Below the pieces are notes generated by a model. The model ran no database searches and had not been told where the DNA came from. It saw only the letters and a list, made by a program, of their open reading frames with translations. A DNA stretch of 64,000 nt. Source: a virus. The DNA lies in the IMG/VR virus record IMGVR_UViG_3300030102_007788, positions 106,407-170,406 of that record; one strand, 5' to 3'. The position numbers were made by a program, and so were the translations under genes. The number at the start of each line of letters is the position of its first letter. Position 1 is the first letter of the stretch. Below are positions 765 through 35,900 of this stretch, in pieces.

Positions 765-838
765 CGCGGGGTAGCCAAGTGGTAAGGCAGGTCTCTGCAA
801 AAGACCCATCGTCGGTTCGATCCCGATCCTCGCGTCCA
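765..838 (+). tRNA. tRNA-Cys (GCA)
   Basis: Acceptor CGCGGGG/CCTCGCG, D-arm with TGG, anticodon arm GGTCT-CTGCAAA-AGACC (GCA 797-799), T-arm GTCGG-TTCGATC-CCGAT, U73, encoded CCA. Confidence 0.93.
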
Positions 839-853
839 TCTTCAAAACATACG

Positions 854-931
854 TAAGTCATTGACTATCAACGACTTAGGCGCGCAGCGCCCCCCCTCCG
901 CCGGCGTAACCCATTGATAATCAGTCACTTA
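854..931 (-). repeat. 78-bp bipartite palindrome element, copy 1 (inverted relative to the others)
   Basis: TAAGTCATTGACTATCAACGACTTA + 28-nt spacer with C7 tract + TAACCCATTGATAATCAGTCACTTA. Confidence 0.95.
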
Positions 932-961
932 GGGCCTTTTTTCTGTCAAGCTTTTTTAATC

Positions 962-994
962 AAAAAAAATCCCCCTCCCTTGCGGGAGGGGGTT
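962..994 (-). terminator. Intrinsic terminator of the DUF932 gene
   Basis: Minus strand CCCCCTCCC-GCAA-GGGAGGGGG followed by a T run. Confidence 0.85.
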
Positions 995-1007
995 GATGGT
1001 GTTCCCC

Positions 1008-1943
1008 TTAGTTCGCGGCCAGATCGACCACGGTGGCAGTCTTCTGCTTTTCAGGAACCTTGGAGGTCAGCTTCTTAAAGAAGGCTGGCTCGCGGGTTGC
1101 CTTATGCAGATTGCCAAGCACGTTCCGGTTAGAGCGTGATGACAGCTCAAACCGATGTTCCTGAACCTCGTGGGTGAGGTGTTGCGTGACCGCGTTGTAC
1201 AGGTTGTACATATTGCGATCATGTGCCACGGCGTCATGGCCCGACTCGATCCGAAAAGACTTGTTAGTCCAGATCGGCGCGATGGAATCCTTGAGGGACT
1301 CAGACAGAACTTTTTTAATGACAAGATTGTCAAGAATCAGTTCGCCTTGCTCTTTGGACAGTTCAAACTCCCTCATTTTTTTGAAGACGTTCACCGACTC
1401 GCGGTATTTGTCCATGCACTCATTCAGCGAATCCGTGATTGAGTCGAAACTCAAACGGGTGCTGTGACGTTGGCTCAGGCTGGTATCGTTAACCATTGTG
1501 ACCATGCCATTGCTGCAGATCTTCCGAAGAAGACCAAGACTCCAACTCAAACCACAACTCCGGTCAAAAGAGTTGTTGAGGGTCAGGCGCATCGAAACGA
1601 TGTCACCGACGGCTACCTCCTCCTGCTGGCCGGGGAAGTCGTAAACCCCATAAAACCGCGCCCCATCACGGGTAGCTAGTTTTTTGGATTTGAATTCACC
1701 GAGGTTGCTACCACGAAGGGCTTCCTCGACCTTTTCAACAACGACTCCGTTGTTGACGATTTCGTACTGCTTAGTGCTAGTACCCAGACAGACTCCATTG
1801 TCTGTGCGAAAGTTCCCGAAGATGGGGGACTTTCCGACCACTACCGGTCTCTGCTTGTGATCATACAAGGGGCGTTGTTCCACCTCGTAATCATACTCGC
1901 GAGAGTGTAGCGTCTCTTTTGGTATGGATTGTTTTCTGCTCAT
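1008..1943 (-). CDS. DUF932 family phage/plasmid protein
   Basis: LG..S..Y.IV.N, GARF, GDIV..RL.L.NSFD, GLLRKICSNGM and LYNAVT.H motifs. Confidence 0.8.
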   Translation of the reverse strand: MSRKQSIPKETLHSREYDYEVEQRPLYDHKQRPVVVGKSPIFGNFRTDNGVCLGTSTKQYEIVNNGVVVEKVEEALRGSNLGEFKSKKLATRDGARFYGVYDFPGQQEEVAVGDIVSMRLTLNNSFDRSCGLSWSLGLLRKICSNGMVTMVNDTSLSQRHSTRLSFDSITDSLNECMDKYRESVNVFKKMREFELSKEQGELILDNLVIKKVLSESLKDSIAPIWTNKSFRIESGHDAVAHDRNMYNLYNAVTQHLTHEVQEHRFELSSRSNRNVLGNLHKATREPAFFKKLTSKVPEKQKTATVVDLAAN

Positions 1944-2075
1944 AACATTTTTAGTGCTTCCTCAGCACGCATTTATATTCTCATAATCTGGCCACCGGGT
2001 CAACCCTTTTTTTGTAATTATTTTTCTTTTTTTTATGCTTGACTTTTCTGAACGAAACTCCGACAAGGTCCATCC

Positions 2076-2153
2076 TAAGTCATTGGTAATCAAGGACTTA
2101 GGGCCGCGGCGGGGGGGCGCCGCCGGCGTAACCCACTGACTATCAATAACTTA
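2076..2153 (+). repeat. 78-bp bipartite palindrome element, copy 2
   Basis: TAAGTCATTGGTAATCAAGGACTTA + 28 nt with CGGCGGGGGGGCGCC + TAACCCACTGACTATCAATAACTTA. Confidence 0.95.
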
Positions 2154-2157
2154 CGAC

Positions 2158-2187
2158 AAAAAAAACCCACGGCGTTGGCCGTGGGTT
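2158..2187 (-). terminator. Intrinsic terminator
   Basis: AACCCACGG/CCGTGGGTT stem followed by a T tract on the minus strand. Confidence 0.8.
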
Positions 2188-2326
2188 AGTGTTATGAAGA
2201 GACGTATAGATGTCTCAGGAGAGTGAAGCCCTCGCCTTGGTAAAACCCGCTAGGGTAGAAAGTATAAAACCCCTAACGGTAAAACCCAAGGCAAGGGCGA
2301 CTTGAAGGAAAGGAGGAACCTTCAAG
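2188..2326 (-). ncRNA. Structured 3' UTR / candidate sRNA
   Basis: Three consecutive hairpins (2301-2326, 2228-2298, 2199-2216); two mismatches become G-U pairs on the minus strand. Confidence 0.45.
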
Positions 2327-2564
2327 CACCTTTAGGAAGTAACCAGCTCCCTAAAATTCTCAGAAAATTTGGCTTTGTGAGATAGCGGTCAACTTCTTTT
2401 TGAGTAGCCAACCGAAGGTGTTCGGCGGGAATCGCTTTCTGATTCTTTCCGTGTCTTTCGGTGACAACTCTTGATTTGCTGAAGTTGTTTGAGATTACGC
2501 GCTCAACTTTTTTTGTCTTTGTATTGTAGTACAACGAACCGTTTCTTATCTTGGTAAGTTTCAT
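2322..2564 (-). CDS. Hypothetical protein (80 aa, start MKLTK)
   Basis: Start reassigned to GTT-ATG 10 nt after TTGACA-17-CATACT. Confidence 0.75.
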   Translation of the reverse strand: MKLTKIRNGSLYYNTKTKKVERVISNNFSKSRVVTERHGKNQKAIPAEHLRLATQKEVDRYLTKPNFLRILGSWLLPKGA

Positions 2565-2666
2565 AACTGAGAAAAGTATGCCCCACACAGGGAGCATTGT
2601 CAACATGAAAAAAAACAAAAAAAGGGGTTGACCATTCACAAAAAGTATGATTAAATTATCTCCGTT
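2565..2666. promoter_or_regulatory. Divergent sigma70-type promoter pair
   Basis: Minus: TTGACA-17-CATACT-10-ATG; plus: TTGACC-17-TTAAAT-10-ATG. Confidence 0.75.
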
Positions 2667-3086
2667 ATGAGGAAGTACATTCCATGGGAAAAGGCAGAGA
2701 GCTTCGCTCCGGATCGCGTCAAGGTGTATCGCAACCTCACTTACAAGTGTTGGACTATATGCGATGCGAAGGATGGCAAGCTATATTGTCATGCGGATAG
2801 TGTTGACTTGCGTGATTGCAAGTTTCGGGTGCAGCCAGCAGGCCGCGCAAGAGTCTTGAAGGAGCGGCAGAAGAACGTCCACGCTTACGTGGTCGGAAAG
2901 TTCCACGATGTGAACTTCGAGCAGGCGCACTATATGCCTCGCGGCTACAAATTCGCGCAGGCTTTCTACAATCCTTATAGGGTTGAAACGTTTGTGAATT
3001 ATCACAATGGCACGCCGCTATATGAAGCGGCACGGGTTGTCTGCAAAAAGGCAGCAGACGGGGCAATGAACATTTATTACGCTTGA
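2667..3086 (+). CDS. Conserved phage hypothetical protein
   Basis: VYRNL...GRARVL.E.QKNVHAYV.G pattern, which I recognise as recurrent in phage proteins. Confidence 0.8.
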   Translation: MRKYIPWEKAESFAPDRVKVYRNLTYKCWTICDAKDGKLYCHADSVDLRDCKFRVQPAGRARVLKERQKNVHAYVVGKFHDVNFEQAHYMPRGYKFAQAFYNPYRVETFVNYHNGTPLYEAARVVCKKAADGAMNIYYA

Positions 3087-3133
3087 CAGCGTACCCTGTC
3101 TAATATATAGTTATCAGCAGTTAAGGGAACAAC

Positions 3134-3385
3134 ATGAATCAGAATCAAATGGATGATCATTGGCTGAGGCCGCGAACAAAAGCGGGAACTGAAGAGATGC
3201 GGAAAAGACTCAAAGCTATGAGGTTTATGCTGGAAGAAGCAGCGGCTCAAAGCCTAGAGGGCCGGATAGCTTCTAAGGTATTCAATGAATACTTTTCTTT
3301 CGAGTGGGAGGATGTACCATCCCTAGAAGAAAAAAAAGTAGATTTAACGAAAAAGGTGGTTGACACCGCTGCCAGTGTGCAGTAA
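3134..3385 (+). CDS. Hypothetical protein
   Basis: 83-aa ORF after TTGACA-17-TATAGT promoter and AAGGGA. Confidence 0.65.
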   Translation: MNQNQMDDHWLRPRTKAGTEEMRKRLKAMRFMLEEAAAQSLEGRIASKVFNEYFSFEWEDVPSLEEKKVDLTKKVVDTAASVQ

Positions 3386-3388
3386 GAT
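3360..3388 (+). promoter_or_regulatory. sigma70-type promoter for the non-coding region
   Basis: TTGACA-17-TAAGAT. Confidence 0.75.
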
Positions 3389-3394
3389 GAGTTT

Positions 3395-3843
3395 TCCCTT
3401 CGGGGACTTGTTAATATAACTTGTATATCTGTCTCCCTGTTAGTGGAGGTTAACTAACAAAGGTTATAGTAGTCGCACCTTCAATTGTATTATTGTTGTG
3501 TTTCATAGTAAAGGGAGTCAGACTGGGCTGACTTAAAACAACCCAGACGCTTTTTGAAAATTTGAGTTGACGGAGTTAAATACCCCTGCGAGTTTCCGTA
3601 CATTTACTCGTGCCCGTTTTACTGCTGGTGGTGCGGCAGCAACTCATTAATTTCCCTTCTCGACGGAGAAGGGCGGTGTGACGGAATTAATCTCTCCCAA
3701 GGAGATAACGTAGCACCTGCGGAAGTACCAACGGCTAAGTGGTTGAGGGAAAACGTGGGTGAGTCCGAAGTAGGTTGATAAGAAACTTTGTTTCTCGGGA
3801 ACCGAAAAGGTGTTGGTAAACAAATAATCCAACCACCATTTTT
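3395..3843 (+). ncRNA. Candidate large structured ncRNA (~450 nt)
   Basis: No credible ORF; own promoter; UUCG hairpin, H-type pseudoknot, multibranch domain, terminal hairpin and T run. Confidence 0.6.
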
Positions 3844-3854
3844 AATTTATAACA

Positions 3855-4070
3855 ATGAAAACTAAACACGCCCAAAGAAAGGCAGAGAAAAGAAAGGCAA
3901 CCCGCAGCCTTAAACTTGATGCGGTCAAGACTCGCGACATAATTGTCCGTGGCTTGAAGCAAGAAGTTAAAAGAGACTTTCGTCGCTGGAAAAAGAATCA
4001 TGCTGGCAAGGTTGAGATAATTTCTCATATTAAAAAATTGGAATCGCAGGTTAATCAAATATTCTCATAA
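3855..4070 (+). CDS. Small basic hypothetical protein
   Basis: 71-aa Lys/Arg-rich ORF. Confidence 0.6.
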   Translation: MKTKHAQRKAEKRKATRSLKLDAVKTRDIIVRGLKQEVKRDFRRWKKNHAGKVEIISHIKKLESQVNQIFS

Positions 4071-4249
4071 TGATTTGCTATGAGTGTGGCATCAAAGCCC
4101 AACGCAAAGAAACAAGATCAGCCAAGAAAGAAAGCCGCGATCCTCAAATAACTATTAGATGCGGCACATGGCGTAAAGGTTCATGCGATAAGTGTAAGAA
4201 AAAAAGAATTCATGTAACAGAAATTTCTGATTTTATTCTGATTAAATAA
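4070..4249 (+). CDS. Small Zn-finger protein (59 aa, MICYECGIK...CDKCKK)
   Basis: Read by hand; TAATG coupling to the previous gene; two CxxC pairs. Confidence 0.6.
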   Translation: MICYECGIKAQRKETRSAKKESRDPQITIRCGTWRKGSCDKCKKKRIHVTEISDFILIK

Positions 4250-4346
4250 GAAGTAAATAAGGATTAAATAAATAACAAATATTGTTAAATTCTTTTAATT
4301 TCTGAGAAAAAAATTATTTTTTTGAAAAAAATTCTTAAAAAGCACC

Positions 4347-4424
4347 TAAGTCACTGGTAATCAGTCACTTACGACTCCGGAGGGGGGGCGCCGCAGCCGT
4401 AAGTCATTGGTATTCAACGACTTA
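4347..4424 (+). repeat. 78-bp bipartite palindrome element, copy 3
   Basis: TAAGTCACTGGTAATCAGTCACTTA + 28 nt + TAAGTCATTGGTATTCAACGACTTA. Confidence 0.95.
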
Positions 4425-4448
4425 AGGTGTTTTTTTTGTCAAGGTTTT

Positions 4449-4673
4449 TTAGCCTTGATAGCGGTAGGCTCCGAGCAGGTCGCCGCCCCAACCGTGGGCA
4501 ACGGTGCAGCCGTCCTCTTCCAGAATCCAAGGCCACATATTGTCATCAGCCTGCTGGGCCAACTCCAAAGCCTTGTCCATTGCCGAATGGTCAACACCGG
4601 CTTCATTGGTGAATTCCTTGCTGCTCACCCTGTTGGTGTCCTCGTTCTTCCAGTACAATGTATATGTCCTCAT
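4449..4673 (-). CDS. Small acidic hypothetical protein
   Basis: 74 aa; own promoter TTGACT-16-TAAGAT-9-ATG. Confidence 0.75.
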   Translation of the reverse strand: MRTYTLYWKNEDTNRVSSKEFTNEAGVDHSAMDKALELAQQADDNMWPWILEEDGCTVAHGWGGDLLGAYRYQG

Positions 4674-4732
4674 AACGGAATTATCTTATCACAAGTTCAG
4701 AAAAAGTCAACAGGTTTTTTTAATTTTTTGAC

Positions 4733-4759
4733 AAAAAAAAGCCGCCCCGAAGGGCGGCC
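4733..4759 (-). terminator. Intrinsic terminator
   Basis: Minus strand GCCGCCC-TTCGG-GGGCGGC-type stem followed by T8. Confidence 0.8.
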
Positions 4760-4771
4760 TAGGTAACCCCG

Positions 4772-5254
4772 TTAGGAAAGTTCCTTGATTTGGGCCTTGA
4801 CGGCGATGAGTCGCGCCGTTTGTTTCGCGATCTCGTCGCGGGTCACGGAGCGGCGTTTGTCGTAATCCTGAAGCTCTTCGAGCTTCGCGGTGATGTCGCG
4901 CAGATCACTCTGCAACTCGTCGAGCTTTTGCTGCTTGACGTTGTCCACCGGCTTGGCCTTTTCGGCTTTGGCTTTCGCCTTTTCGGCTTTGGCTTTCGCC
5001 TTGGCCTCAAGCTCATGGGTTGGAAGCTCTCTGGCGATCCTCGCGAAGTACGGATTGGTTTTCGCGCTGGATTTGCCGTTGAGCTTGGCCTCGGTTTGGT
5101 GTCCGCGTTGTTGAGCGCACTTCACCGCAAAGCCCTTGATGGCGAGGTTAATCGCGTCAAGGTTAGTTGCTTTGCCCGACAGTAGGTCGCTGATTACGTT
5201 GCTCAGCATGATTGAGTCGTCAGCCCTGTTCATTCCGTTATTGGATTTTTTCAT
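4772..5254 (-). CDS. Coiled-coil protein with AKAKAEK repeat
   Basis: 160 aa, GAAAGGA SD-like site, GC-rich codons. Confidence 0.8.
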   Translation of the reverse strand: MKKSNNGMNRADDSIMLSNVISDLLSGKATNLDAINLAIKGFAVKCAQQRGHQTEAKLNGKSSAKTNPYFARIARELPTHELEAKAKAKAEKAKAKAEKAKPVDNVKQQKLDELQSDLRDITAKLEELQDYDKRRSVTRDEIAKQTARLIAVKAQIKELS

Positions 5255-5298
5255 TTAGTTTTGTCCTTTCGTTTTGTGTTAGCGTTACGCTAACGGGG

Positions 5299-6327
5299 TT
5301 AATGCCACCACCTACTATTCGCAGTCGAGCTATAACTCAAACTCTGCATGCTGCATCCGGTGGCTTTTATGTACGCTCTCTTGAGTTTAAGAAGATTTCT
5401 GTGATCTTCTATCATCTCTTGAGAAATTTCTTTACTACTTACTGAAAAACCTTCTTGTAAAAACTGGGCTTGTATTACAGATTTTACATAGGAGTCTTCA
5501 AGATTATCTCTGCATTTTTGACCTGCTGCTATACTCTGGTCTCGATACTTATTTTTTTGTTCTTTTGTTATCAACTCCTCCCGATAATGTTTATCAAAGC
5601 ATGATTCCTTGCAATATGCGCGGGCTTGACCGCCGGGAATTATAGGTTTCCCTTCCGCATCCCACCAACTGATAAAACTAAAATCTTTTTTGCAGCCAAT
5701 ACAGTTATGAGTAAACTCTCTTTTTGTTATATCTTTTGGAATGTATGGCCAGTTCTTAATTGAGCCATATTTTTTATTCCAAACACCTTGGAACAGTCTC
5801 CAGCCGTGTTGACATTTAGCGTTTTTGCATACTTTTTGCCTGTTGCCATACCTTCGTTCAAAGGTTCCTTGGCAGTATGGGCAAGTGGCCGTGGGGTAGT
5901 TTCCGTTTTTGTCGTGAGTCAATCTTGGATTACCGTTGATGTCCAGCTTTGGTTTTTGCTGTTTAGCAACTTGATTCCGTCTTGCCGCTTCTTTTCTGCT
6001 GCATTTTACAGAGCAAAATTTGAATCGGCTCTTTTCGCTTGGCTTTGATAATTTACCCCTAGTTGTCCACTTTTTCCTTGTTATCTGGTATGTTTTTTCG
6101 CAACCTTCAGCCTCGCATACGAATGTATTAGTGACAGTCTCTTTATATTTGTCGGACTTCAGAAAATTCTGGATTTTTTCGCGTGATTTTGCACCAATTC
6201 TTTCGGCGGCGATTCTTCGCGCCATTCCCCCATTATTGTCAAAGCAAGTTTTGTTTTCATCTTCTCTGCAATACTTCGCTCCTAGTTTTGGATTTATTTT
6301 TGAGCCGCAGGCTTTGCACTTCCTCAT
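5299..6327 (-). CDS. Multi Zn-finger (Cys-rich) basic protein
   Basis: Repeated CxxC...[KF/Y]CxxxC units; promoter TTGACT-17-TAGGAT-10-ATG. Confidence 0.8.
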   Translation of the reverse strand: MRKCKACGSKINPKLGAKYCREDENKTCFDNNGGMARRIAAERIGAKSREKIQNFLKSDKYKETVTNTFVCEAEGCEKTYQITRKKWTTRGKLSKPSEKSRFKFCSVKCSRKEAARRNQVAKQQKPKLDINGNPRLTHDKNGNYPTATCPYCQGTFERRYGNRQKVCKNAKCQHGWRLFQGVWNKKYGSIKNWPYIPKDITKREFTHNCIGCKKDFSFISWWDAEGKPIIPGGQARAYCKESCFDKHYREELITKEQKNKYRDQSIAAGQKCRDNLEDSYVKSVIQAQFLQEGFSVSSKEISQEMIEDHRNLLKLKRAYIKATGCSMQSLSYSSTANSRWWH

Positions 6328-6375
6328 AACAGAGATAATCCTAATTTATTCTGGCTGGAGAGTCAACAATTTATT

Positions 6376-7044
6376 TTAATTATTTTTAATTAAAGACCGA
6401 TACATTTTTTCACAATTAACGAATGCCATCATCAACATTTTACTTTGGGGCGAGGTTGCGTAAGGATGCGACCAAATGCACAACCAATCTTTTTCTGAAA
6501 ATTTTCTTTCAACATATGGCTCCAAATTGTGTGCATAGTTGCCGCCACCGTCTCGAATTTCCCAGTCCAAATCATGTGAGCCGCGTCCACTTGTTCTGAG
6601 GAAAGTCACGACAACAATTGAACCCTTTGCGCATTGTTCTGTTGATTCTGCCATGCGCGTTCTCGTTGCCGCTCCGCAGTAATCGCGCCAGATAAACATT
6701 GGATTATTATAATAATTAAAATCAACCACACCGTTTCGGGGCATTTCAATATTCTGATAAGTTAAAATGTCATCATTCTGGTCAATCATCCTGCTTACTT
6801 TTGGTGAGTCGAGATTACGCCAAAATATGTCTTCCTCTTTCTCATAACAAAACAGTTTTGTATTTTCTTGCCTTGCTGTTTTCAATATTTCTTTTTCTTG
6901 AGCCCAGACAACATATGGTAACGTAGCAATGGCTTTTGCTTTTTTAGAGTGATACCTTTCAAAGTTTACCCGCAACCCATCAACTAAGTGACGAGCCTTT
7001 ACCTTTTCATTCTTCTCACTTATCTCTGCCTTGTAGTTTGTCAT
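6376..7044 (-). CDS. Hypothetical protein, possible SAM-methyltransferase-like fold
   Basis: LFCYEKE and FIWRDYCG resemble motifs of phage MTase-like proteins; weak evidence. Confidence 0.5.
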   Translation of the reverse strand: MTNYKAEISEKNEKVKARHLVDGLRVNFERYHSKKAKAIATLPYVVWAQEKEILKTARQENTKLFCYEKEEDIFWRNLDSPKVSRMIDQNDDILTYQNIEMPRNGVVDFNYYNNPMFIWRDYCGAATRTRMAESTEQCAKGSIVVVTFLRTSGRGSHDLDWEIRDGGGNYAHNLEPYVERKFSEKDWLCIWSHPYATSPQSKMLMMAFVNCEKMYRSLIKNN

Positions 7045-7211
7045 TTTTGATTGGTTTTAAGCCGAGGGTGGTTAGTCCCCCGGCACAGGAATATATTGGC
7101 ATAAAAAAACTTTTAAGACAAGGGAAAAAAGTATTTTTTTTGCAATAAAATTATTTTTTTAAATGGGGAAGATGGCACAGAACCTGCACCGGAGAAGGGG
7201 TCAAAAAAACG

Positions 7212-7289
7212 TAAGTCATTGATTACCAGTGGTTTACGCCTGCGGCGGGGGGGCGCCGAGGCCGTAAGTCATTGATACTCAGTCACTTA
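7212..7289 (+). repeat. 78-bp bipartite palindrome element, copy 4
   Basis: TAAGTCATTGATTACCAGTGGTTTA + 28 nt + TAAGTCATTGATACTCAGTCACTTA. Confidence 0.95.
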
Positions 7290-7324
7290 CGACTTTTTTT
7301 ATTATTTTAATTTTTTTACTTGAC

Positions 7325-7362
7325 AAAAATGCCCCGCCGAGCTCATGAGGACTCGACGGGGC
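7325..7362 (-). terminator. Intrinsic terminator
   Basis: GCCCCGTCGAG...CTCGGCGGGGC stem followed by ATTTTT on the minus strand. Confidence 0.75.
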
Positions 7363-7450
7363 TGCGTTATGAGATTGGGGTCTTATTAAGTGCGACAGCT
7401 TCCCCCGTTGCCGTTGTCTAGGTCACTATCATGCCTCCGCACTTAAATTA

Positions 7451-7933
7451 TTATAATTTATAAAACACGTGTTGGCCGATTGTCTTGACGGGCTTTTGAC
7501 CTTTTGCCCAGTAAGGTAATTTTTTCATCCATGTGGCATGGTAGTGATTAGCGAAGCCAACATATTCGCGGCTTAAAGTTTTGACATTCTTTGCAACGGT
7601 GATGGCGTATTTTGCCTGTGGCACTTTCAACAAATGCTCAAGGTCTTTTAGCTTTTTTCCATTCCAACAACTAAATTGCCATTTTTTAAGGCATACCTCC
7701 GTGGGAGTTTGTTTTCTTTCAAATGCTCGTTGAGCAATGACAGCACCCACCGCGTACATTCCTTTTTCCCCTTCCCCTCTGGCTTCCGCCAATATAGTAA
7801 TTGCGACGACTTTTTCCTCACGGGTGAGGCTTTGGTTGCTGTGTGTGTGGGCGTAAGCATAAACAGAGTTAACAATTAAAAACAATTGAAAAACAACAGG
7901 TAATAAACAAACTGATATAATTAATTTTCTCAT
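7451..7933 (-). CDS. SleB-like cell wall hydrolase (Hydrolase_2) with N-terminal signal/anchor
   Basis: TILAEARGEG..GM.AV..VI..R, QFSCWN, ANHYHA, PYWA, IGQHVFYK; start reassigned to MRKLII. Confidence 0.88.
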   Translation of the reverse strand: MRKLIISVCLLPVVFQLFLIVNSVYAYAHTHSNQSLTREEKVVAITILAEARGEGEKGMYAVGAVIAQRAFERKQTPTEVCLKKWQFSCWNGKKLKDLEHLLKVPQAKYAITVAKNVKTLSREYVGFANHYHATWMKKLPYWAKGQKPVKTIGQHVFYKL

Positions 7934-7937
7934 TTTT

Positions 7938-8156
7938 TTATTCTCCATCCATTGAGGTTGGTTCACCGTGCAGGGCGTTAGTGATTTTGGCCCGTGATTG
8001 GGCTAGGTCGTCGGCAAGCCGTTTGCAAGTCTCGCGCATTTCCTCAACTGTTAAGTATGTGGATTTTGCGAGGTGTTCTAGGACTCCTTCAGTCTCGGCG
8101 ATTGTCACTTGGGCCGTGCTGATTTTTCTTTCGTTTGCGTAGTCAATCATTCTCAT
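7938..8156 (-). CDS. Small hypothetical protein
   Basis: Own promoter TTGACC-17-TATACT-10-ATG. Confidence 0.75.
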   Translation of the reverse strand: MRMIDYANERKISTAQVTIAETEGVLEHLAKSTYLTVEEMRETCKRLADDLAQSRAKITNALHGEPTSMDGE

Positions 8157-8245
8157 AACAGAAAAAAGTATAGTTTAGTTTTCGGGTAAGGTCAACAGTA
8201 AAATTGCATTTAATAGCAAAAAAATTATTGTGCAGGTTAGGACGG

Positions 8246-8512
8246 TCATTTGCTGAAATGGCCGTGATCTTCAAAACATTTGACGATCTCAACGACACGG
8301 TGAATGTCACCAGTCAACACCTTGTTTCCGTCAAGGTCTTTCTCTAGCACCACGCTGTTGTGGTATTGGTCAATCATCTCCTGCTCAGTTGTGCCAAGCG
8401 GGAAAGTGCAGCCTCCTACATTGTTAACACGGGCCATAAAGTGGTTGCCGGTGTAGGTTGGGTTCTTCTCCACTTTGAAGGTAACATTTAAGAATGGTTT
8501 CTTATCTCTCAT
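8246..8512 (-). CDS. Small hypothetical protein (88 aa, MRDKK)
   Basis: Start reassigned; promoter TTGACT-16-TATACT-10-ATG. Confidence 0.75.
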   Translation of the reverse strand: MRDKKPFLNVTFKVEKNPTYTGNHFMARVNNVGGCTFPLGTTEQEMIDQYHNSVVLEKDLDGNKVLTGDIHRVVEIVKCFEDHGHFSK

Positions 8513-8570
8513 AACGGGAATTAGTATATCAGAATTTTTTAAAAAGTCAACAACTATTTTCAACTTTTTT

Positions 8571-8768
8571 TCAACCGCCGATGGCGATCTCGGCGATTGC
8601 CTCACGCCATGCGTCACAAGCCGCATCTACGTCGAGCTTGTTCTCGTAGGCCCAGCGAATGACTTCGCCCTCGTAGTCCTTGTCGATGCCACCGAAGCCC
8701 AGCTCCCAGTAGTTGCAATGTTTCGTGACCTCGTTGAAGTAGTCTTTGTAATTGTTCATATCTCTCAT
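8571..8768 (-). CDS. Small acidic hypothetical protein
   Basis: Promoter TTGCAA-16-TATACT-10-ATG. Confidence 0.75.
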   Translation of the reverse strand: MRDMNNYKDYFNEVTKHCNYWELGFGGIDKDYEGEVIRWAYENKLDVDAACDAWREAIAEIAIGG

Positions 8769-8908
8769 AACGGAAAACAGTATATCACAGCCTCAGAAAA
8801 TTGCAAGCTTTTTTTCTCATATTTTTTTATTTTTATTAAAAAAACTTTTTTTAATAATTCGCACAGGTTGGCACGGAAACCCATCGGCAAAACACGCCTT
8901 AGAATACG

Positions 8909-8986
8909 TAAGTCACTGATAGTCAACGACTTACGCCGCCGGCGGGGGGGCGCCGCGCTCCTAAGTGACTGATACTCAAGGACTTA
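8909..8986 (+). repeat. 78-bp bipartite palindrome element, copy 5
   Basis: TAAGTCACTGATAGTCAACGACTTA + 28 nt + TAAGTGACTGATACTCAAGGACTTA. Confidence 0.95.
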
Positions 8987-9017
8987 CGACTTCAAACAGA
9001 GTTTTTTATTTAATCAC

Positions 9018-9041
9018 AAAAAAACCCCGCCTTGGCGGGGT
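9018..9041 (-). terminator. Intrinsic terminator
   Basis: ACCCCGCC-AA-GGCGGGGT followed by a T tract. Confidence 0.75.
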
Positions 9042-9060
9042 GACTTGGCACGGTTCCTGA

Positions 9061-9255
9061 TTAACCGGCGGCGATCAGCAGGTCAAGGGCAGCGTCCTCG
9101 GCGAGCTGCGCGTCAGACTGGCGGCCCATCTCATCCGCGACCATGTCCGCGTCCTGCGCGGCGATGTCCGCCTCGCGACGCTCATCACACCACGCGTTCA
9201 ACTCAAACTCCTCCTCGCAGGAGAGTTCCATGAATAACGATTTCATCATTCCCAT
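9061..9255 (-). CDS. Small, very acidic protein (64 aa)
   Basis: Start reassigned; promoter TTGACT-16-TACTCT-10-ATG. Confidence 0.72.
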   Translation of the reverse strand: MGMMKSLFMELSCEEEFELNAWCDERREADIAAQDADMVADEMGRQSDAQLAEDAALDLLIAAG

Positions 9256-9302
9256 AACAGAAAAAAGAGTAACAGAATCAGAAAAAAAGTCAACGAAAAA
9301 AA

Positions 9303-9518
9303 TCAGTTTTTTTCGGGATCCTCCCACACGATTTCCCAATCGTATGGGGAGTTGGACAAGTCACACGGAGCGACCTTGCACTTGACAGCGGACTTGGCCT
9401 CACGGGCACAAGTGATAGCAGCCTCAAGACCCTCATGGCTCGGAGCGAACCAGCGAACAAACTCAAGCCGACCAGTGGCGGACTTGACCTCAACGAAGTA
9501 TTTAGCATGAAACCTCAT
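9303..9518 (-). CDS. Small hypothetical protein
   Basis: Promoter TTGACT-16-TATTCT-10-ATG. Confidence 0.75.
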   Translation of the reverse strand: MRFHAKYFVEVKSATGRLEFVRWFAPSHEGLEAAITCAREAKSAVKCKVAPCDLSNSPYDWEIVWEDPEKN

Positions 9519-9565
9519 AACAGAAAAAAGAATATCAGAATCTCAGGAAAAGTCAACAATAAATC

Positions 9566-9700
9566 TCACTTTTTTTTTCTTTTTAATCCGCGCTTAAACT
9601 GCTCCCATGTGGGGCGTTCAGCTTCGGGGATTGCCTTCCATTCTTTCATCTGCGCTTGACGTAGCAGCGCACCACCAAAAGATTTAATATTATCACTCAT
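9566..9700 (-). CDS. Small protein (44 aa, MSDNIKSFGG...PTWEQFKRGLKRKKK)
   Basis: Read by hand; promoter TTGCAA-16-TAAAAT-10-ATG. Confidence 0.7.
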   Translation of the reverse strand: MSDNIKSFGGALLRQAQMKEWKAIPEAERPTWEQFKRGLKRKKK

Positions 9701-9749
9701 AACGAAAAAAATTTTATCAGAATTTCAGGAGATTGCAACCTTTTTTTAA

Positions 9750-9911
9750 TTATTTTCCCATGTTCAGCCAAGTGCTGAATGAACGTTGCATGCGGTTGCG
9801 TCGAGCTTGGCGATTGAGCTTGCGGTATCGTGCATTCCATTTGTCGGCTGTGCTGTCCAAAACTTTTTTGATTGTTTCTTCGCTGATGTTTAATCCTTTG
9901 TTATCTTTCAT
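9750..9911 (-). CDS. Small basic protein (53 aa, MKDNKGLN...)
   Basis: Read by hand; degenerate TTGCAA...GATACT promoter with ACT-ATG start. Confidence 0.6.
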   Translation of the reverse strand: MKDNKGLNISEETIKKVLDSTADKWNARYRKLNRQARRNRMQRSFSTWLNMGK

Positions 9912-9990
9912 AGTATTAAAGTATCATAATTTTTTTAGGTTTGCAAGAAAAACTTTTAATTATTTTTGGCATGGTTCCTGCCTAGGTGCG

Positions 9991-10068
9991 TAAGTCACTG
10001 ATAGTCAATGGGTTATGGGCGCGGGAGGGGGGCGCCGCCGGCGTAAGTCCTTGGTAGTCAACGACTTA
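9991..10068 (+). repeat. 78-bp bipartite palindrome element, copy 6
   Basis: TAAGTCACTGATAGTCAATGGGTTA + 28 nt + TAAGTCCTTGGTAGTCAACGACTTA. Confidence 0.95.
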
Positions 10069-10091: not shown

Positions 10092-10253
10092 TTACCCCCC
10101 GAAACAAGAGGGGCACGACTCAAAAAATTTGCACCAGCACCGGTCATCAGCCTCGGTCTCGGCCTCGTCGAAGCCGTTGGCGACTGTGACGTTGGCGACC
10201 CAAGCGTCAGACTGCATTTCGAAAACCTCTTCGCATGTAATGTTATCTCTCAT
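10092..10253 (-). CDS. Small acidic Cys-containing protein (53 aa, MRDNIT)
   Basis: Start reassigned; promoter TTGCAC-16-TATACT-10-ATG. Confidence 0.7.
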   Translation of the reverse strand: MRDNITCEEVFEMQSDAWVANVTVANGFDEAETEADDRCWCKFFESCPSCFGG

Positions 10254-10383
10254 AACGGGGATCAGTATACCACAACCGCAGAAAAGTGCAAGCATTATTT
10301 TCATTTTTTTGAAAAAAGTTTTTCTTATTTTTTTTGATTTAGGGCTTGCATTATTCGGCGATTCATGCGACACTATTTCTGTT

Positions 10384-10625: not shown

Positions 10626-10674
10626 ATCTTTTTACTTGCATTCAACAAAAACTTTTGATATTATTTTTCCAGTT

Positions 10675-10884
10675 ATGAGAGCTACAACAAGACAGCACCT
10701 GTGCGATGAGATTGCCGAGCTTGCCGGTGTGCGCGGCGGCCTTCAGTCATTAACCGCCACGACGTGGCAGGACGCCGATTACCTTCGGAACAAAATTAAC
10801 GAAGCGAATGAGCGTTTGACCGAAATCCAAAACAAGCTGCATGAGGCGACATGGAGCGAAGAAACCGAATGGCTAGACGAATGA
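10675..10884 (+). CDS. Small coiled-coil protein (MRATT)
   Basis: Start reassigned; promoter TTGCAT-17-TATTAT-10-ATG. Confidence 0.72.
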   Translation: MRATTRQHLCDEIAELAGVRGGLQSLTATTWQDADYLRNKINEANERLTEIQNKLHEATWSEETEWLDE

Positions 10885-16795: not shown

Positions 16796-18388
16796 ATGGG
16801 GGAACTGCATACCATAGCAAGCAATGGTAATTTAAATGTTATAAAAAAAGCGCTTTCGAAAAATAAAGACGCATTTCTTGTCGTAGATGAAGAGTTAGGA
16901 TGGTCTCCTTTACATTACGCCGCTAGCAAAAGCAAAACTAAAATTGTAGAAGCTATTTTAGAGGCTGGCGTTGACCCTAATATTCCAAGTGTTCCTCGCA
17001 CTAAATATAAACAAAATGCTTGGAACTTAGCTATGGAGGAAGACAAAGAGAATGTTGACCCAATCGTTTTCCCACTGGATGTTGCAGATGGCCCTTCTCG
17101 CACAACAGTATTCAAAACGATTTTAATGTACGGTGGAATTTTTTATGGAGATGAATTAACTCTTCATCAAGCTGTACAGTTAGACGATATGGAAGAAGTC
17201 GAGGGATTACTACAAGACGAAACTCTTAAAATTAATGCTAGAGATAATAGAGGATGGATGGCGATTCATTACGCTGTAGATCTTGCTAATATGGAAATGT
17301 TAAAAATATTAATTGCAAATAAAGCTGCTATAAACGGTTCCACTTATGCAAAAGATGCTATAATTCATTTTAATCCTTGGGAAATTGCTAACATTAAAAA
17401 TGATGAAGTAATGCTTAAATTTTTAGAATCTAAAGGCGCTAAACGTCACCCGGGTATACTGCATGATCAAAGGGCAACGTTAAAAAATAAAACTAAATTA
17501 TACGACAGGTCAAAATCTGACTTAACTATGTCAGCAGTTAGAGAAAAATTAAAAGAAAAAGAAGCCTCGTTTAAAAAAGTTCCTAAAGCTCCTGAAGGAT
17601 TTTTGGGCAAGCTATTTGAAAATAAACACGATAAAGAAAAAAGATTAGCTTTAGAAGCCGCTGCCGAAAAAGAGCGGGAAAAAGAAGAAGAAGCCAAAAG
17701 AATAAAGCAACAAGAGCAAGAAGAAGAAAGAAGAAAACAGCAAGTTATAAAATGGTCTGGAGGCGTAGATCCTTTTAAATTAAAGGGTGAGTCATTAACT
17801 TATGACGAACAGTGTGAGGCTCATATTTATTTTATGGATATCGTAGGGTATTCGCAGAAAAGCACAAGTGAACAAAAACAAGTTTCAGATGAGTTGGTTT
17901 CAATTGTAAAAAGCACCGAGAGCTTTCAGAAGGCAGATAAAAAAGGTAAGTTAGTTATTCTGCCTACAGGTGACGGTATGGCTTTAGTTTTCTTCGATTC
18001 CGTTCATACAGCTTTTAAATGCGCTATAGATGTCGGCATCAGGACATTTAAGCATCCTCAAATAGGATTACGTCACGGTGTTTATACCGGACCCGTAGTT
18101 CCTGTTAAAGACATAAATGATAACCCTAACGTTTCTGGTACAGGTATAAATATGGCTCAACGCTGCATGGATGCTGGAGACAGTGATCATATCTTGATCT
18201 CAGATCATGTGTATCAATACGTTAGAGAATCTATACCTGCATTAAAATTTGAAGATTGGGGACCTGTAGTCGTCAAACACGGAGCTACAGTACATATGTG
18301 GACAGCTTTTGGCGTTAATTGTGGGAGACAAGAATTTCCTCATTGGAGAGGGATTAAGAGATTAGAGTATAAGGAAGATGAAGAATAA
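16796..18388 (+). CDS. Ankyrin-repeat plus class III nucleotidyl cyclase
   Basis: GWSPLHYAA and GWMAIHYAV repeats; FMDIVGYS, PTGDGMALVF, LRHGVYTGPV, GINMAQRCMD, HILIS. Confidence 0.88.
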   Translation: MGELHTIASNGNLNVIKKALSKNKDAFLVVDEELGWSPLHYAASKSKTKIVEAILEAGVDPNIPSVPRTKYKQNAWNLAMEEDKENVDPIVFPLDVADGPSRTTVFKTILMYGGIFYGDELTLHQAVQLDDMEEVEGLLQDETLKINARDNRGWMAIHYAVDLANMEMLKILIANKAAINGSTYAKDAIIHFNPWEIANIKNDEVMLKFLESKGAKRHPGILHDQRATLKNKTKLYDRSKSDLTMSAVREKLKEKEASFKKVPKAPEGFLGKLFENKHDKEKRLALEAAAEKEREKEEEAKRIKQQEQEEERRKQQVIKWSGGVDPFKLKGESLTYDEQCEAHIYFMDIVGYSQKSTSEQKQVSDELVSIVKSTESFQKADKKGKLVILPTGDGMALVFFDSVHTAFKCAIDVGIRTFKHPQIGLRHGVYTGPVVPVKDINDNPNVSGTGINMAQRCMDAGDSDHILISDHVYQYVRESIPALKFEDWGPVVVKHGATVHMWTAFGVNCGRQEFPHWRGIKRLEYKEDEE

Positions 18389-32947: not shown

Positions 32948-35900
32948 ATGGCAATTACGAGATACGCAGGAGATAGATTTACGACAAACAGCTCGGATAC
33001 AAAACCGACAGGTGTTCTCGATGGGGCGTATCTTATTGATACTGGGAACTTGACCCAGTGGGTGAGGAGAACGGTAGGTGGCAGCTCCCAATGGAATCAA
33101 TTAGCTGGCGGCGGAGGTGGAGGAGGCACTCCCGGCGGCGCGAATACTCAGGTTCAGTTTAATAACGCAGGGGCTTTCGGCGGGAATGCCAATTTAACTT
33201 TTGACGGCAGTAAGCTTGCCGTAAACGATCTTGCTTTAAGTGGAATAATTTATGATTCCAACAACTCTATTGGTAATGGGGGTATGGTTCTTACTAACGA
33301 GGGAACAACCGGCGTTAATTGGAAAAGTATTGAATCTGTTTTATCCGGCGTTGGAGGTTCCGGCGTTGCTAATTATGTAGCTCGTTGGTCTGATGAGGAT
33401 ACTATAACAACTGGAGTTTTAGTTGATGATGCGACGAATGTTGGTATAGGTACAGCTAGTCCACAACGGTTACTTGCTATAAAAGGGGACTCTAAACATT
33501 TTGGAGCTTACGCTACTGACGATAGTCTTTCTGCTTTATTAGGAACCGATGCTAATGGAGATGGTCAGCTATTGTTAGCAGACCTTAATGGAACCACAAA
33601 AATTCTTCTTGAAGCTGAGGCTGACGCTAACAGCTACATAAATAATGGCGGTAATTTTGGTTTAGGCACAGCTGCTCCTGCTGCCCCGCTAGACGTCCAA
33701 TCTGCCAATGGGTCTAGCGTTGGCATCAGGGTGACTGATGGCCATAAAATGCAGTTTTTAAATAGCTCTAATAACACTAACTCAAATATATATAATAATG
33801 GAGCGTCAGGATTAGCTCAATTAGCTTTTCAAATTGCGGGAGCGACTAAAGTAACTATAATCAATGACGGAAATGTTGGCATAGGAACTACTGCTCCTAC
33901 TGGTTTATTATCTTTAGCCAAAGGAACTCGCACACTAGATTTCAAATTGGAAACTAGTCCAGCAACCGGGGACATGGGCGTGCAGATTAGAGCGGGTAGC
34001 GGAGACTATATAGGCTTGGCTGGTGGAGGTGGAACGGGAGTAGGCTTAGTTGTAGACTCAGCTAATCAAGCTGGTTTTGGTACAGGTACTTTTGGTTCTA
34101 ATAATGTCCTAACAATTACAAACGTAGGTAATAATGCATCCTATTCTGCTATCGCTCTTGGTACAGCTACAACGGGTCACGGTAATAGTGAGGGATATTG
34201 GATAGGGATGCTAGAGAATGGTCAAGCTTACCTTTGGAATTACGAGAATCGGCATATCTTATTTGGCGCAAATAATGCCGAGAGAATGCGTATTACCTCT
34301 GTAGGTAATCTTGGCATAGGCCTAACTGTTCCCCTTAATAGACTTCAGGTTATGCCTTCTACTTCTGGGGGGAACGCTTCTAACGCATCAGAAGATGCTG
34401 CATATTTTGGAGGAAATGAGCTTGGAGGTATAGGTGGTTATACAGGAATACGTTTAGGAGGTTTTGGTGCAAGTGGCTACGGAACTTATATACGTTCAGT
34501 TAAAACCTCTGCTTACGGAGGTTACTGGAATGAGGCGATAACTTTTAGTGTTACCCGAACCGGCACTTCAAGCACGGTAGATGAGGCGATGCGTATTACA
34601 GCTGACAGTAATGTTGGCATAGGAACAACTGCTCCAGCTACAAAATTTCATGTAGAAGACTCAACCGCGAATACTACTGCCACTAAAATAACAGTTCAAG
34701 GCGGAAGTCGAGGATTTACTTTAGGAAAAGCTCACACTGCTGATAATTATCAACACTTAAAACCTATAACTGATACTGCTATGGCATTGAGGGTCATGCC
34801 AAATGGCACTACAGCTAGGGAGGCGTATGTTGAAGTCTGGAACAAGGATTTTGAAAACGGCGCTAACTCTACCTCTTGGCATAGAGGAATGTTCTATATT
34901 GATGCGTCCAATGATGTCTATCTTCGCGCAGATGGGCTTGGAACAGCTGGAAGAGTTTATATAGGCACAGAGAATAATACTCAAACCCTTACTGTTAAAG
35001 ATGACGGTAATGTTGGTATAGGTACAACAGGTCCTGATTCGAAGTTAGAAATCTCAGGTGGAAGCTACAATTCATCACTTAAAATAAAAGGCTCGGGTGC
35101 TGAGACAGGAATACAGTTTGAAGATAGCGCGGGTAATACAGATGGTTATATATATGCAAACGGTGGCATGGTAGGGTTTTTAGACGCAGGTACCCATTGG
35201 ACAATTCAATGTAAGGATGATGATTATATCAAATTTCTCACAAATAACGGTACTGAGCATATGCGTATTACCTCTGTTGGTAATGTTGGCATAGGCACAG
35301 ATAACCCCACTGGTAAATTACAAATAGGCGCTAATTATACAATACCGGGAACTGCATATGGCGGTAATGATATTTATATCGCCAACACAGGTAGCCACAG
35401 CGACTACGATCCTTATGTTACTAATACTGATGATTTCAGAGCATTAATTACTATTTCAGATGCAACTACGGAAGGCCCAACAAAACCCGGTTTAATATTA
35501 TACAATGACTCTACTACCGCAGGCGGGTTCTCCCCGATGCTTCTTTTCGCAAAAAGGGAAACTGGATCTAGTCCTTATAAGGCGGCGACGGCAGCTATTT
35601 ATGCTAGATCACCATTAGGTACGGGGAATGGCGATGGTTGGATTGATGGTGAATTAATTTTTGCAACGGCTGGTGCTGCGACGCAAGGCATCCGGCAAAG
35701 AATGGTTATTAATAAAGAGGGCCTTGTAGGTATAGGTACAAATAATCCGGGTCAAAATTTACAAATTCATCAGGCCGACAGTGACGTTAACTATCTTGAA
35801 TTTACCAACACTACTGCAACTACAGGGACTCTTGTGGGTTTAAACGCAGCCGAGGAATTTATACTTTGGCATAGGCACGATTCGGATATGGTTTTCGCTA

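Follow-up and report, generated by a model that had tools for sequence, protein, structure and literature searches.

Paired palindromes as boundary modules between early-gene cassettes of an uncultivated phage: candidate sites for an IHF-like host protein

The locus raises the question of what a 78-bp element, made of two 25-bp palindromes around a 28-nt spacer, does in a phage genome in which it recurs with fixed dimensions. The window analysed here is the whole stretch of 64,000 nucleotides that corresponds to positions 106407-170406 of a 170,406-bp viral record. A sequence-only reading had described six copies of 25+28+25 bp, and all of them were recovered: a pattern search of the window returned 12 exact matches to TAA-N5-TG-N5-CA-N5-TTA (Table 1), when 0.17 are expected by chance and shuffled sequences gave at most 2. 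A repeat search of the window regained the six copies as one family, in which copy 1 pairs in inverted orientation with each of the other five, and the remaining layout was also as described, the spacer consisting of 6 nt, CGG[C/A]GGGGGGGCGC[C/T] and 7 nt, with the core reverse-complemented in copy 1 and its A shifted by one in copy 6. The count of six, correct for the window, falls short for the genome, where a seventh copy (copy 0) lies at 105194-105271, 1.2 kb upstream of the window. In a whole-genome scan the mismatches to the consensus were distributed bimodally, 14 palindromes having four or fewer and everything else six or more, and therefore the genome holds exactly seven elements; all of them fall inside 11.3 kb.

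Table 1. Coordinates of the elements and neighbouring features in the window
Feature	Position	Strand	Remarks
tRNA-Cys	765..838	+	3' end 16 nt ahead of copy 1
Element copy 1	854..931	-	palindromes 854-878 and 907-931; C-run core on + strand
Intrinsic terminator of DUF932 gene	971..992	-	transcription reaches it before copy 1
Element copy 2	2076..2153	+	palindromes 2076-2100 and 2129-2153; G-run core on + strand
Intrinsic terminator	2164..2187	-	directly precedes copy 2; ends 11 nt from it
Element copy 3	4347..4424	+	between convergent genes; A-run and T-run on its sides
Element copy 4	7212..7289	+	
Intrinsic terminator of Hydrolase_2 gene	7331..7362	-	42 nt before copy 4
Sigma70-type promoter, TTGCAA-16-TATACT with TG	8779..8806	-	of the cassette downstream of copy 5; ~100 nt past it
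Element copy 5	8909..8986	+	
Intrinsic terminator	9024..9041	-	38 nt before copy 5
Element copy 6	9991..10068	+	core A shifted by one
Palindrome starts	854, 907, 2076, 2129, 4347, 4400, 7212, 7265, 8909, 8962, 9991, 10044		

With respect to their surroundings, the 78-bp repeats are boundary modules between small early-gene cassettes. The elements sit after an intrinsic terminator and before the AT-rich region upstream of the next sigma70-type early promoter, and the local genes around the seven copies are small and mostly without family matches. Four of the five best minus-strand terminators have an element 11-42 nt beyond them. Among 181 non-redundant paired elements from relatives, an outward sigma70-like promoter is found within 160 nt of 62% of elements against 23% of control positions, a T-run occurs on the incoming strand within 45 nt of 64% against 27% of controls, and the median distance from paired element to -35 is 33 nt. 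The promoter downstream of copy 5 is one of a family whose members are each followed by a conserved GTTATGAG start. The distance between element and promoter ranges from 15 to about 110 nt, a variability that does not suit a fixed-geometry activator, and some early promoters have no element. Copy 1 has the plus-strand tRNA-Cys gene on one side and, 40 nt away on the other, the terminator of the DUF932 gene of the minus strand.

Several features would suit an element that works as folded nucleic acid, be it a terminator or RNase processing signal in the RNA or a cruciform extruded from the DNA. Predicted folds allow a stem of 11 bp in each palindrome and a GC stem of 5 bp in the spacer, A-runs and T-runs lie beside several copies, copy 1 was scored terminator-like in a terminator scan, and some relatives have a spacer that forms a clean hairpin capped by a UUCG-type loop. 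However, across 158 non-redundant paired elements no base-pair covariation was found at the variable palindrome positions, complementarity being at chance level (0.364 observed against 0.371 in shuffled data at position 7, which is paired in only 36% of palindromes, and 0.26 against 0.34 at position 12), nor was there any compensatory change within palindromes or between left and right ones. The half-sites vary independently, as had been claimed, and the palindromes are therefore read as double-stranded half-sites and not as hairpins. Moreover, the predicted single-strand folds differ among copies with z-scores of only -0.9 to -3.3, and the corresponding half-sites of Stenotrophomonas phage DLP6, being direct repeats, are unable to pair. 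A folded nucleic acid is thus largely refuted as far as the palindromes are concerned, and very improbable as an account of the element. Membership among structured RNAs or intrinsic terminators was likewise rejected, with pairing at chance, inconsistent folds and no Rfam match for the element.

The geometry of the pair was compared with that in related uncultivated phages, where more than 180 paired elements were found. The sequence-only reading had placed a pair of dimers on the same face of the helix, flanking a directional G-tract, as a possible signal for replication, priming, DNA entry or site-specific recombination. Within this phage the arrangement is indeed regular, the palindromes being spaced by exactly 53 bp in 7/7 copies and six of the seven cores sharing one genome direction, which follows the genome strand and not transcription (copy 0 lies in a plus-strand unit, copies 2-6 in minus-strand units). 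Conservation of spacing and core polarity among relatives had been chosen beforehand as the check on this proposal, and neither is kept: start-to-start spacings there are 41-42, 46-50, 52-53 and 58 bp, equivalent to 4.0 to 5.5 helical turns, and the spacers, varied and GC-rich, are in many cases symmetric GC hairpins that lack a G-run, close relatives included. A scatter of seven sites across 11 kb, placed between promoters and terminators, is also unlike an origin, and the replication-origin and DNA-entry roles gained no support. The absence of a recombinase, noticed earlier for the window, extends to the whole genome (CheckV 100% complete), which lacks Phage_integrase and Resolvase. Helix-phased dimers around a G-tract are hence a most improbable explanation. 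A site for a tyrosine or serine recombinase, integron attC among them, was discarded as a candidate since PF00589 and PF00239 are absent from the genome.

A comparison by blastn with the relative L170 (~80% nucleotide identity), the one pair analysed in detail, revealed exchanged segments beside elements E2 and E4, with 2.5 kb replaced and the synteny breakpoints located inside or at the elements. Judged from these alignments, cassettes appear to be swapped between related phages at the elements; of the recombination role envisaged earlier, only homologous exchange at repeated modules finds support. In five close relatives the same place is occupied by another inverted repeat, composed of TTGACRTCTAACG, a GC core and CGTTAGAWGTCAA, which does not fit the IHF consensus. 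The elements could accordingly be regarded as chiefly recombination or mobility modules, PeSL-like or MITE-like, kept alike by exchange and lacking a dedicated binder. The breakpoints, the inverted copy, a spacing and spacer that are uniform inside one phage and different between phages, a replaceable module type and the precedent of the PeSLs (PMC4122927) all speak for this, but drift and gene conversion do not predict that an identical pattern of fixed and free positions should recur in distant phages (TerL ~40% identical), in DLP6 and in bacteria. In addition, the copies of this phage are only 62-76% identical, neither transposase nor recombinase is encoded, and no target-site duplication is evident in the flanks. 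Membership among MITE/REP-type mobile repeats, for which many dispersed near-identical copies with terminal repeats and target duplication would be expected, was rejected, the seven copies being clustered and dissimilar to this degree. Modules maintained by exchange without a binder are thus distinctly improbable.

The PeSLs are promoter-early stem-loop regulatory cassettes of T4-type phages (Arbiol et al. 2010, PMC2839356; Comeau et al. 2014, PMC4122927). They share with the modules described here the composite of terminator, AT-rich region and sigma70-like promoter, the repetition between small non-essential or ORFan genes of a hyperplastic early region, and the breaking of indels or replacements between close relatives at the modules, observed here in the L170 pair. 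They differ in that this phage is without T4 core genes, that an extra and strongly conserved 78-bp part (two 25-bp palindromes plus GC spacer) stands between terminator and promoter, and that the messages here are almost leaderless (GTTATGAG), whereas those of PeSLs carry a Shine-Dalgarno site.

The motif is also present in bacteria. In an intergenic region shared by five species of Fibrobacter, the palindrome stands out as an invariant island from flanks of 60% identity and varies solely at positions 7, 12-14 and 19, the degenerate positions being the same in these orthologous sites as in the phage. This coincidence, together with the lack of covariation, supports the earlier proposal that the palindromes are sites of a dimeric protein that binds double-stranded DNA. 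Sites with three or fewer mismatches number 21 in one Akkermansia genome and 10 in a Verrucomicrobiales MAG, the reversed-pattern control giving 0; those of Akkermansia precede argS and dnaA and adjoin the inverted repeats of inverton-like switches, and both the Akkermansia and the Fibrobacter sites are chromosomal, not prophage. The abundance in Akkermansia is compatible with the PVC host considered earlier, and no proof of it. A site with two or fewer mismatches was found in 0/30 other Akkermansiaceae and 5/40 other Verrucomicrobiota, a patchy distribution of the extended palindrome that is not the one predicted for a universal nucleoid protein.

DLP6 carries 26 half-sites TCAA[C/G]GACTTA, each with an A-tract ahead of it and most of them just upstream of early promoters; the sites were published as 'Phage promoters in groups of two' (PMC5349666). 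A separate sigma70-type promoter (CTTTACTT-N17-TATAAT) follows downstream of the half-sites, which are thus not promoters in their own right. Both phages have the identical 11-nt half-site TCAACGACTTA, and in both the sites are intergenic, paired, adjoining a GC hairpin and at the head of early gene clusters; in DLP6, however, the half-sites are mostly direct repeats 25 bp apart, with the A-tract replacing the second half. DLP6 belongs to the T4-like phages and is unrelated to the present phage, and the genes common to both are only PhoH, RNR, SleB and similar. That an 11-bp half-site recurs in three settings, its fixed and free positions following a single pattern, implies a single DNA-binding specificity, and the occurrence of the motif in bacteria and in the unrelated DLP6 points to a host protein as the most likely binder.

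Which host protein this might be is suggested by the palindrome, which reads YAA-N4-TTGAT-W-ATCAA-N4-TTR, that is, two back-to-back halves of the IHF consensus, with a central composition of T 0.49, W 0.87 and A 0.49. Both halves fit the IHF consensus WATCAANNNNTTR: at least one half of every palindrome scores 12/13 or better and eight halves score 13/13, and of the 24 exact matches in the 170-kb genome 8 fall inside the 546 bp of the elements. IHF kinks DNA at an AA step located 6 bp from TTR, the two kinks being ~9 bp apart (PMC5829579); by sequence geometry, the AA steps of the palindrome, the predicted kink steps, are at 8/9 and 17/18, 9 bp apart. No PF00216 protein is encoded by this phage, DLP6 or four related contigs, and each of the candidate host genomes searched has two or more DNABII genes. 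One DNABII protein is best classified as HU and one as IHF in the genomes of Fibrobacter, the Verrucomicrobiales MAG and Aureliella; among the five paralogues of Akkermansia the top-scoring one, the sole one classified, is best as HU. The most likely binder would be an IHF-like protein of the DNABII family that forms a homodimer, this form being predicted because the site is fully symmetric, in contrast with E. coli IHF, a heterodimer on an asymmetric site. The sites described here differ further in being paired around a GC spacer and in the GTC/GAC block conserved inside N4 of the consensus, which E. coli IHF does not require. The contexts are alike: E. coli IHF is found upstream of phage early promoters, at oriC and at the fimS invertible element, and the palindromes are placed upstream of promoters, upstream of dnaA and beside inverton-like inverted repeats.

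The palindromes could instead be operators for a sequence-specific dimeric regulator from outside the DNABII family, the likeness to IHF being then a coincidence; the conserved GTC/GAC block, which lies outside the IHF consensus, speaks for this. Such a regulator would be a patchy host transcription factor or a small phage protein, for example one for early-promoter shut-off. It would account for the patchiness of the extended motif among Verrucomicrobia and for the switch of repeat type in close relatives, as operator/regulator pairs would show, and the DUF932 gene, a 94-aa ORF and a 251-aa ORF occur in relatives with the TAAGTC-type array and are mostly absent where the other repeat is found. 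On the other hand, the early ORFs yielded no DNA-binding domain, the bacterial genomes that carry the sites lack DUF932, this phage and DLP6 have no candidate regulator in common at E<1e-4, the bacterial sites are chromosomal and not those of prophages, and a match to the consensus together with the 9-bp kink geometry would be unlikely to arise by chance. Operators of this kind are consequently a somewhat unlikely explanation. Quite unlikely is also that the palindrome is the site of an uncharacterised, widely but patchily spread non-IHF binding or recombination-accessory protein for short-range DNA exchange, which would assist inverton inversion in Akkermansia, the paired sites around a GC core then serving integron-like capture, inversion and swapping of early-gene cassettes in a large clade of uncultivated phages with genomes of 140-170 kb.

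The reading of the elements as early-cassette boundary modules with sites for an IHF-like host protein, which also act as exchange points, has in our judgement about an even chance of being right as a whole. The highly variable early region would be transcribed by the host RNA polymerase, and each 25-bp palindrome would be bound, as double-stranded DNA, by a dimeric host protein. Two sharp bends around a stiff, hairpin-prone GC-rich spacer would produce a compact nucleoprotein knot upstream of the promoter. Whether as an upstream bend, as a roadblock or as a topological barrier separating strongly transcribed units, this knot would either stimulate early transcription or insulate it. As a repeated module, the element would moreover be the place at which homologous recombination swaps, deletes and inverts cassettes among related phages, in the manner of the PeSLs of the T4 type. 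If this is true, the cassette boundaries would explain the shuffling of anti-host early genes between phages outside the T4 group. Three observations earlier made separately are joined: the repeated "promoters" of DLP6, the cassette boundaries of a large clade of uncultivated phages and a conserved cis-element of Akkermansia and Fibrobacter that is found also in the phase-variation switches of Akkermansia, with an implied DNA-binding specificity not described before. Were the binder an IHF-like homodimer, this would be the first defined high-affinity site for such proteins outside Proteobacteria and would show phages recruiting a host architectural protein to early promoters, a prediction open to test in the cultivable A. 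muciniphila and F. succinogenes, and in S. maltophilia with DLP6.

Small intergenic repeats carrying an IHF site are known in the Correia elements of Neisseria and in BIME-1/RIP of E. coli, which combine palindromes with an IHF-type site near terminators or promoters and are involved in rearrangements. Those repeats are chromosomal and dispersed in hundreds of copies, the Correia elements having terminal inverted repeats and target duplications, whereas here there are seven clustered phage copies, with no evident duplications, in which the palindromes themselves are IHF-like.

The pattern TAA-N5-TG-N5-CA-N5-TTA has 12 exact matches in the window, at the coordinates claimed for it by a sequence-only reading, where shuffled sequences would be expected to give 0.17. 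As that reading had proposed, the six 78-bp copies constitute a single repeat family in which copy 1 runs opposite to the other five, and in all of them a 28-nt spacer with the core CGG[C/A]GGGGGGGCGC[C/T] separates two palindromes. The viral record, 170,406 bp long and rated 100% complete, ends with the 64 kb of the window, and a seventh copy (copy 0) lies at genome positions 105194-105271, 1.2 kb upstream of the window. A scan of the whole genome allowing mismatches found 14 true palindromes with four mismatches or fewer, all other sequence having at least six. Therefore, the phage carries exactly seven elements, all inside 11.3 kb. The G-run is on the plus strand in six of the seven copies; hence, the polarity of the core tracks the genome strand and not the direction of transcription.

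The elements are embedded in a series of small genes, most of which lack family matches. Every gene of the array region has its own sigma70-type promoter, composed of TTGAC or TTGCA, 16-17 nt and TG-n-TATACT. Some 7 nt past the promoter is a conserved start, GTTATGAG(A/G), so that the messages are nearly leaderless; the family was recovered as repeats D18 and D20 (locations in the table). Read along the minus strand, a gene is followed by a GC hairpin with a T-run, the element, AT-rich DNA, a promoter and the next gene, the element being located 11-42 nt after four of the five best-scoring terminators of that strand. Copy 0 has the equivalent layout on the plus strand. Just upstream of it (L169:12890-13075, genome ~104.9-105.1 kb) there is a promoter-like TTGCGA-N17-TATAAC with a strong T-run hairpin ~130 nt past it and no ORF between, which may be a small RNA unit. 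Copy 1 (window 854) follows a tRNA-Cys gene, a placement similar to that of palindromes directly after the 3' end of tRNA genes in several bacterial genomes (L134:1115, L153:91, L158:1171, L127:1333 and L131:1033).

Locations of promoter and repeat features in the phage, its relatives and Akkermansia
Feature	Location	Strand	Description
Sigma70-type promoter family	window 4677-4734, 8503-8559, 8759-8815, 9509-9565, 9691-9747, 10244-10300	minus	
Sigma70-type promoter family	window 2640-2694, 10647-10684	plus	
Alternative module of close relatives	L173:7922-16390, L172, L171, L178, L180		TTGAC(R)TCTAACG - ~20 nt GC-rich core including GGCGGG - CGTTAGA(W)GTCAA
GCATT-NNN-AATGC pairs, Akkermansia genome G005	L220, L222, L225, L226, L228, L229, L232, L235, L236; ~1390-1640 of each locus		~145-157 bp apart

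The palindromes could act as folded single strands or as sites on the duplex. In 158 non-redundant paired elements the complementarity of the variable positions, within a palindrome or between the left and right ones, was no higher than in shuffled controls, with the sole exception of a small excess at position 4. The predicted single-strand folds varied from copy to copy (z-scores -0.9 to -3.3), and an Rfam search returned tRNA only. Given the covariation test and the inconsistent folds, a hairpin, cruciform or RNA reading of the palindromes was rejected; therefore, the half-sites are read independently on double-stranded DNA, and the earlier interpretation of their independent variation was borne out. 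Other assignments were discarded as well. The TTGAC in the arms is not a -35 decoy, there being no -10 element at a suitable distance, and FNR/CRP and Fur boxes, CIRCE, matS, parS, dif and hix/gix sites, the MotA box, and T7-type, N4 hairpin and ECF sigma promoters did not fit in spacing or sequence.

The core motif TTA-N6-CGGNGGGGGGGCGCNG-N6-TAA had no match among the IMG/VR viral contigs, which indicates a G7 core confined to this phage and those most closely related to it. Searched for by itself, the palindrome matched over 118 viral contig stretches; a contig generally contains several, most of them in pairs. These contigs belong to relatives, pieces of ~140-170 kb genomes that have PhoH, a sigma-like protein, an ERCC4 nuclease, TerL and portal in common with the phage at 35-45% identity. 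No cultured relative was found in GenBank, where the best TerL matches are ~25% identical, and blastn of one element against GenBank phages gave no match, the motif being too short for BLAST. In the relatives, the start-to-start spacing of the palindromes clusters at 41-42, 46-50, 52-53 and 58 bp, constant within a phage and variable even between close relatives; the spacer is GC-rich in every case, frequently a symmetric hairpin, and contains a G-run or C-run only sometimes. Hence, the proposal of two dimers phased on the helix around a polar core fails the test set with it, since spacing and core polarity both vary among relatives. The layout is maintained: terminator, element, A-rich stretch, CTTGACT-N17-TAnnnT and ATG. 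Outward promoters and incoming T-runs were ~2.5-fold commoner around the 181 non-redundant elements than around random positions, and the median distance from the element to the -35 was 33 nt. In five close relatives the equivalent position, bounded as in the phage by a terminator and AT-rich promoter DNA, is occupied by a different inverted repeat, TTGACRTCTAACG - GC core - CGTTAGAWGTCAA.

The closest relative with sequence for comparison (L170, ~80% nucleotide identity) keeps the gene order of the phage outside the array. Within it, the segment preceding the second element (E2) in the phage precedes the fourth (E4) in L170 and vice versa, the 2.5 kb between the third element (E3) and E4 have no counterpart in L170, and the alignments change partner within elements or at their edges. 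This exchange, taken with the one inverted copy and a spacing uniform within a phage, agrees with the description of the promoter-early stem-loop cassettes (PeSLs) of T4-type phages (PMC4122927). The absence of a recombinase, noted before for the window, extends to the 170-kb record, in which neither a tyrosine nor a serine recombinase was found; consequently, the exchange would be most simply explained by homologous recombination between the repeated elements. The elements are cassette boundary modules like PeSLs, carried by a phage unlike T4 and extended by two palindromic sites, probably for a host protein of the architectural type. The predicted paired bends around a GC spacer may stimulate the promoters or block read-through; they may also act as a topological barrier, or simply let the module work in either orientation.

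The palindrome was also present in 41 stretches of bacterial genomes. Many single matches were perfect hairpins flanked by A-runs and T-runs and thus may be chance terminators, so single matches were left out of the evidence for a host binder. Five Fibrobacter species have the palindrome in an orthologous intergenic region, where it forms an invariant island between flanks of only 60% identity and varies only at positions 7, 12-14 and 19, the positions that are free in phages. One Akkermansia genome contains 21 sites with up to three mismatches and a Verrucomicrobiales MAG contains 10, against a chance expectation of ~0.1 per genome and none in any genome with the reversed pattern. The Akkermansia sites precede the argS promoter (by ~90 bp), dnaA, and surface-polysaccharide and PEP-CTERM genes. 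Eleven loci have a pair of GCATT-NNN-AATGC inverted repeats ~150 bp apart, with the site 5-20 bp inward of one of them; the centre triplets of the pair are mutual reverse complements, and a promoter is at the repeat opposite the palindrome. In G005, where these units precede glycosyltransferase, acyltransferase and PEP-CTERM genes, the TAAGTC palindrome stands beside one repeat, the other being overlapped by a TTGAC...TATACT promoter. Such units look like invertible promoters, in which the genus is rich (PMC13343947). The loci upstream of argS in two Akkermansia species (L148:3067 and L151:7538) share 98% identity, but the middle triplet of the palindrome is TAC in one and its reverse complement, GTA, in the other, resembling a flip of the centre. 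In a Burkholderiales MAG (L163:1180-1204) and a Limnohabitans MAG (L156:6037-6061) a single palindrome lies directly against a DnaA-box sequence (TGTGGATAA) between genes, in AT-rich DNA that in the former is upstream of priA and not dnaA; these regions may be replication origins.

A literature string search, the only route by which it was reached, led to the unrelated, T4-like Stenotrophomonas phage DLP6, in which the half-site recurs. Its genome has 26 copies of TCAA[C/G]GACTTA (23 on the coding strand), mostly as direct repeats 25 bp apart with an A-tract before each. A GC hairpin follows, the T-run of which overlaps the -35 of a CTTTACTT-N17-TATAAT promoter. The sites were listed by the DLP6 authors as phage promoters occurring in groups of two (PMC5349666). 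Only PhoH, RNR, SleB, a deaminase and a glycosylase are common to both phages, and the one candidate for a shared DNA-binding protein, phrog_624, was rejected as a pyrimidine-dimer glycosylase (Pyr_excise), for which no solved relative was found.

The population matrix of the palindrome comprises TAA, four partly free positions, TTGA, a T/W/A centre and the mirror image. It reads YAA-N4-TTGAT-W-ATCAA-N4-TTR, that is, two IHF consensus sequences (WATCAANNNNTTR) back to back, and the 170-kb genome has 24 exact matches to this consensus, 8 of them inside the elements, which total 546 bp. Bound IHF kinks DNA at an AA step, 6 bp from the TTR element, with the two kinks ~9 bp apart (PMC5829579); the AA/TT steps of the palindrome are exactly 9 bp apart. 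The DLP6 version corresponds to one IHF consensus half plus an A-tract, the form that would be expected for a heterodimeric gammaproteobacterial IHF, and the full palindrome would be the preferred target of a homodimer. The contexts agree too, since E. coli IHF classically acts upstream of promoters, near dnaA and beside inversion repeats, as found here for elements and palindromes. Fibrobacter, the Verrucomicrobiales MAG and a planctomycete each have one gene of the DNABII (HU/IHF) family scoring best as HU and one scoring best as IHF, all under the curated cut-offs; Akkermansia has five, of which the top-scoring one, the sole paralogue classified, scores best as HU. Against an IHF-like binder count the conserved GTC/GAC block of the palindrome, outside the E. 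coli IHF consensus, the alternative repeat of the close relatives, which does not fit IHF, and the patchy bacterial distribution of the extended motif (none of 30 other Akkermansiaceae and 5 of 40 other Verrucomicrobiota).

The protein does not seem to come from the phages. No DNABII protein was found to be encoded by the phage, DLP6 or the four relatives searched, the lone match in the phage (13.7 bits) being a 64-aa membrane ORF, aligned at its N-terminal helix, that is not HU, and no DNA-binding domain was found in the small early ORFs. DUF932 was rejected as binder because it is missing from the bacterial genomes bearing sites. The motif comparisons thus point, quite probably, to a host dimeric protein that binds double-stranded DNA; the narrower identification as an IHF-like protein is weaker, and its chances appear about even. 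The binder would be identifiable by simple biochemistry in cultivable organisms.

Other genes of the phage deserve mention. Near the array (L169:687-3155, genome 92.7-95.2 kb), an 822-aa ORF whose sole match is a faint one to GHKL ATPases (HATPase_c) might encode a diverged topoisomerase-like or MutL-like protein. A 530-aa protein (window 16796-18388) combines N-terminal ankyrin repeats with a weak match, just under cut-off, to an adenylate/guanylate cyclase domain. Two giant ORFs (window 32948-47161, 3210 plus 1526 aa, and 55191-64000, at least 2936 aa) are made up of dozens of degenerate repeats, and have a GNVGIGT-like motif and 75-nt periodic units (families D1-D12).
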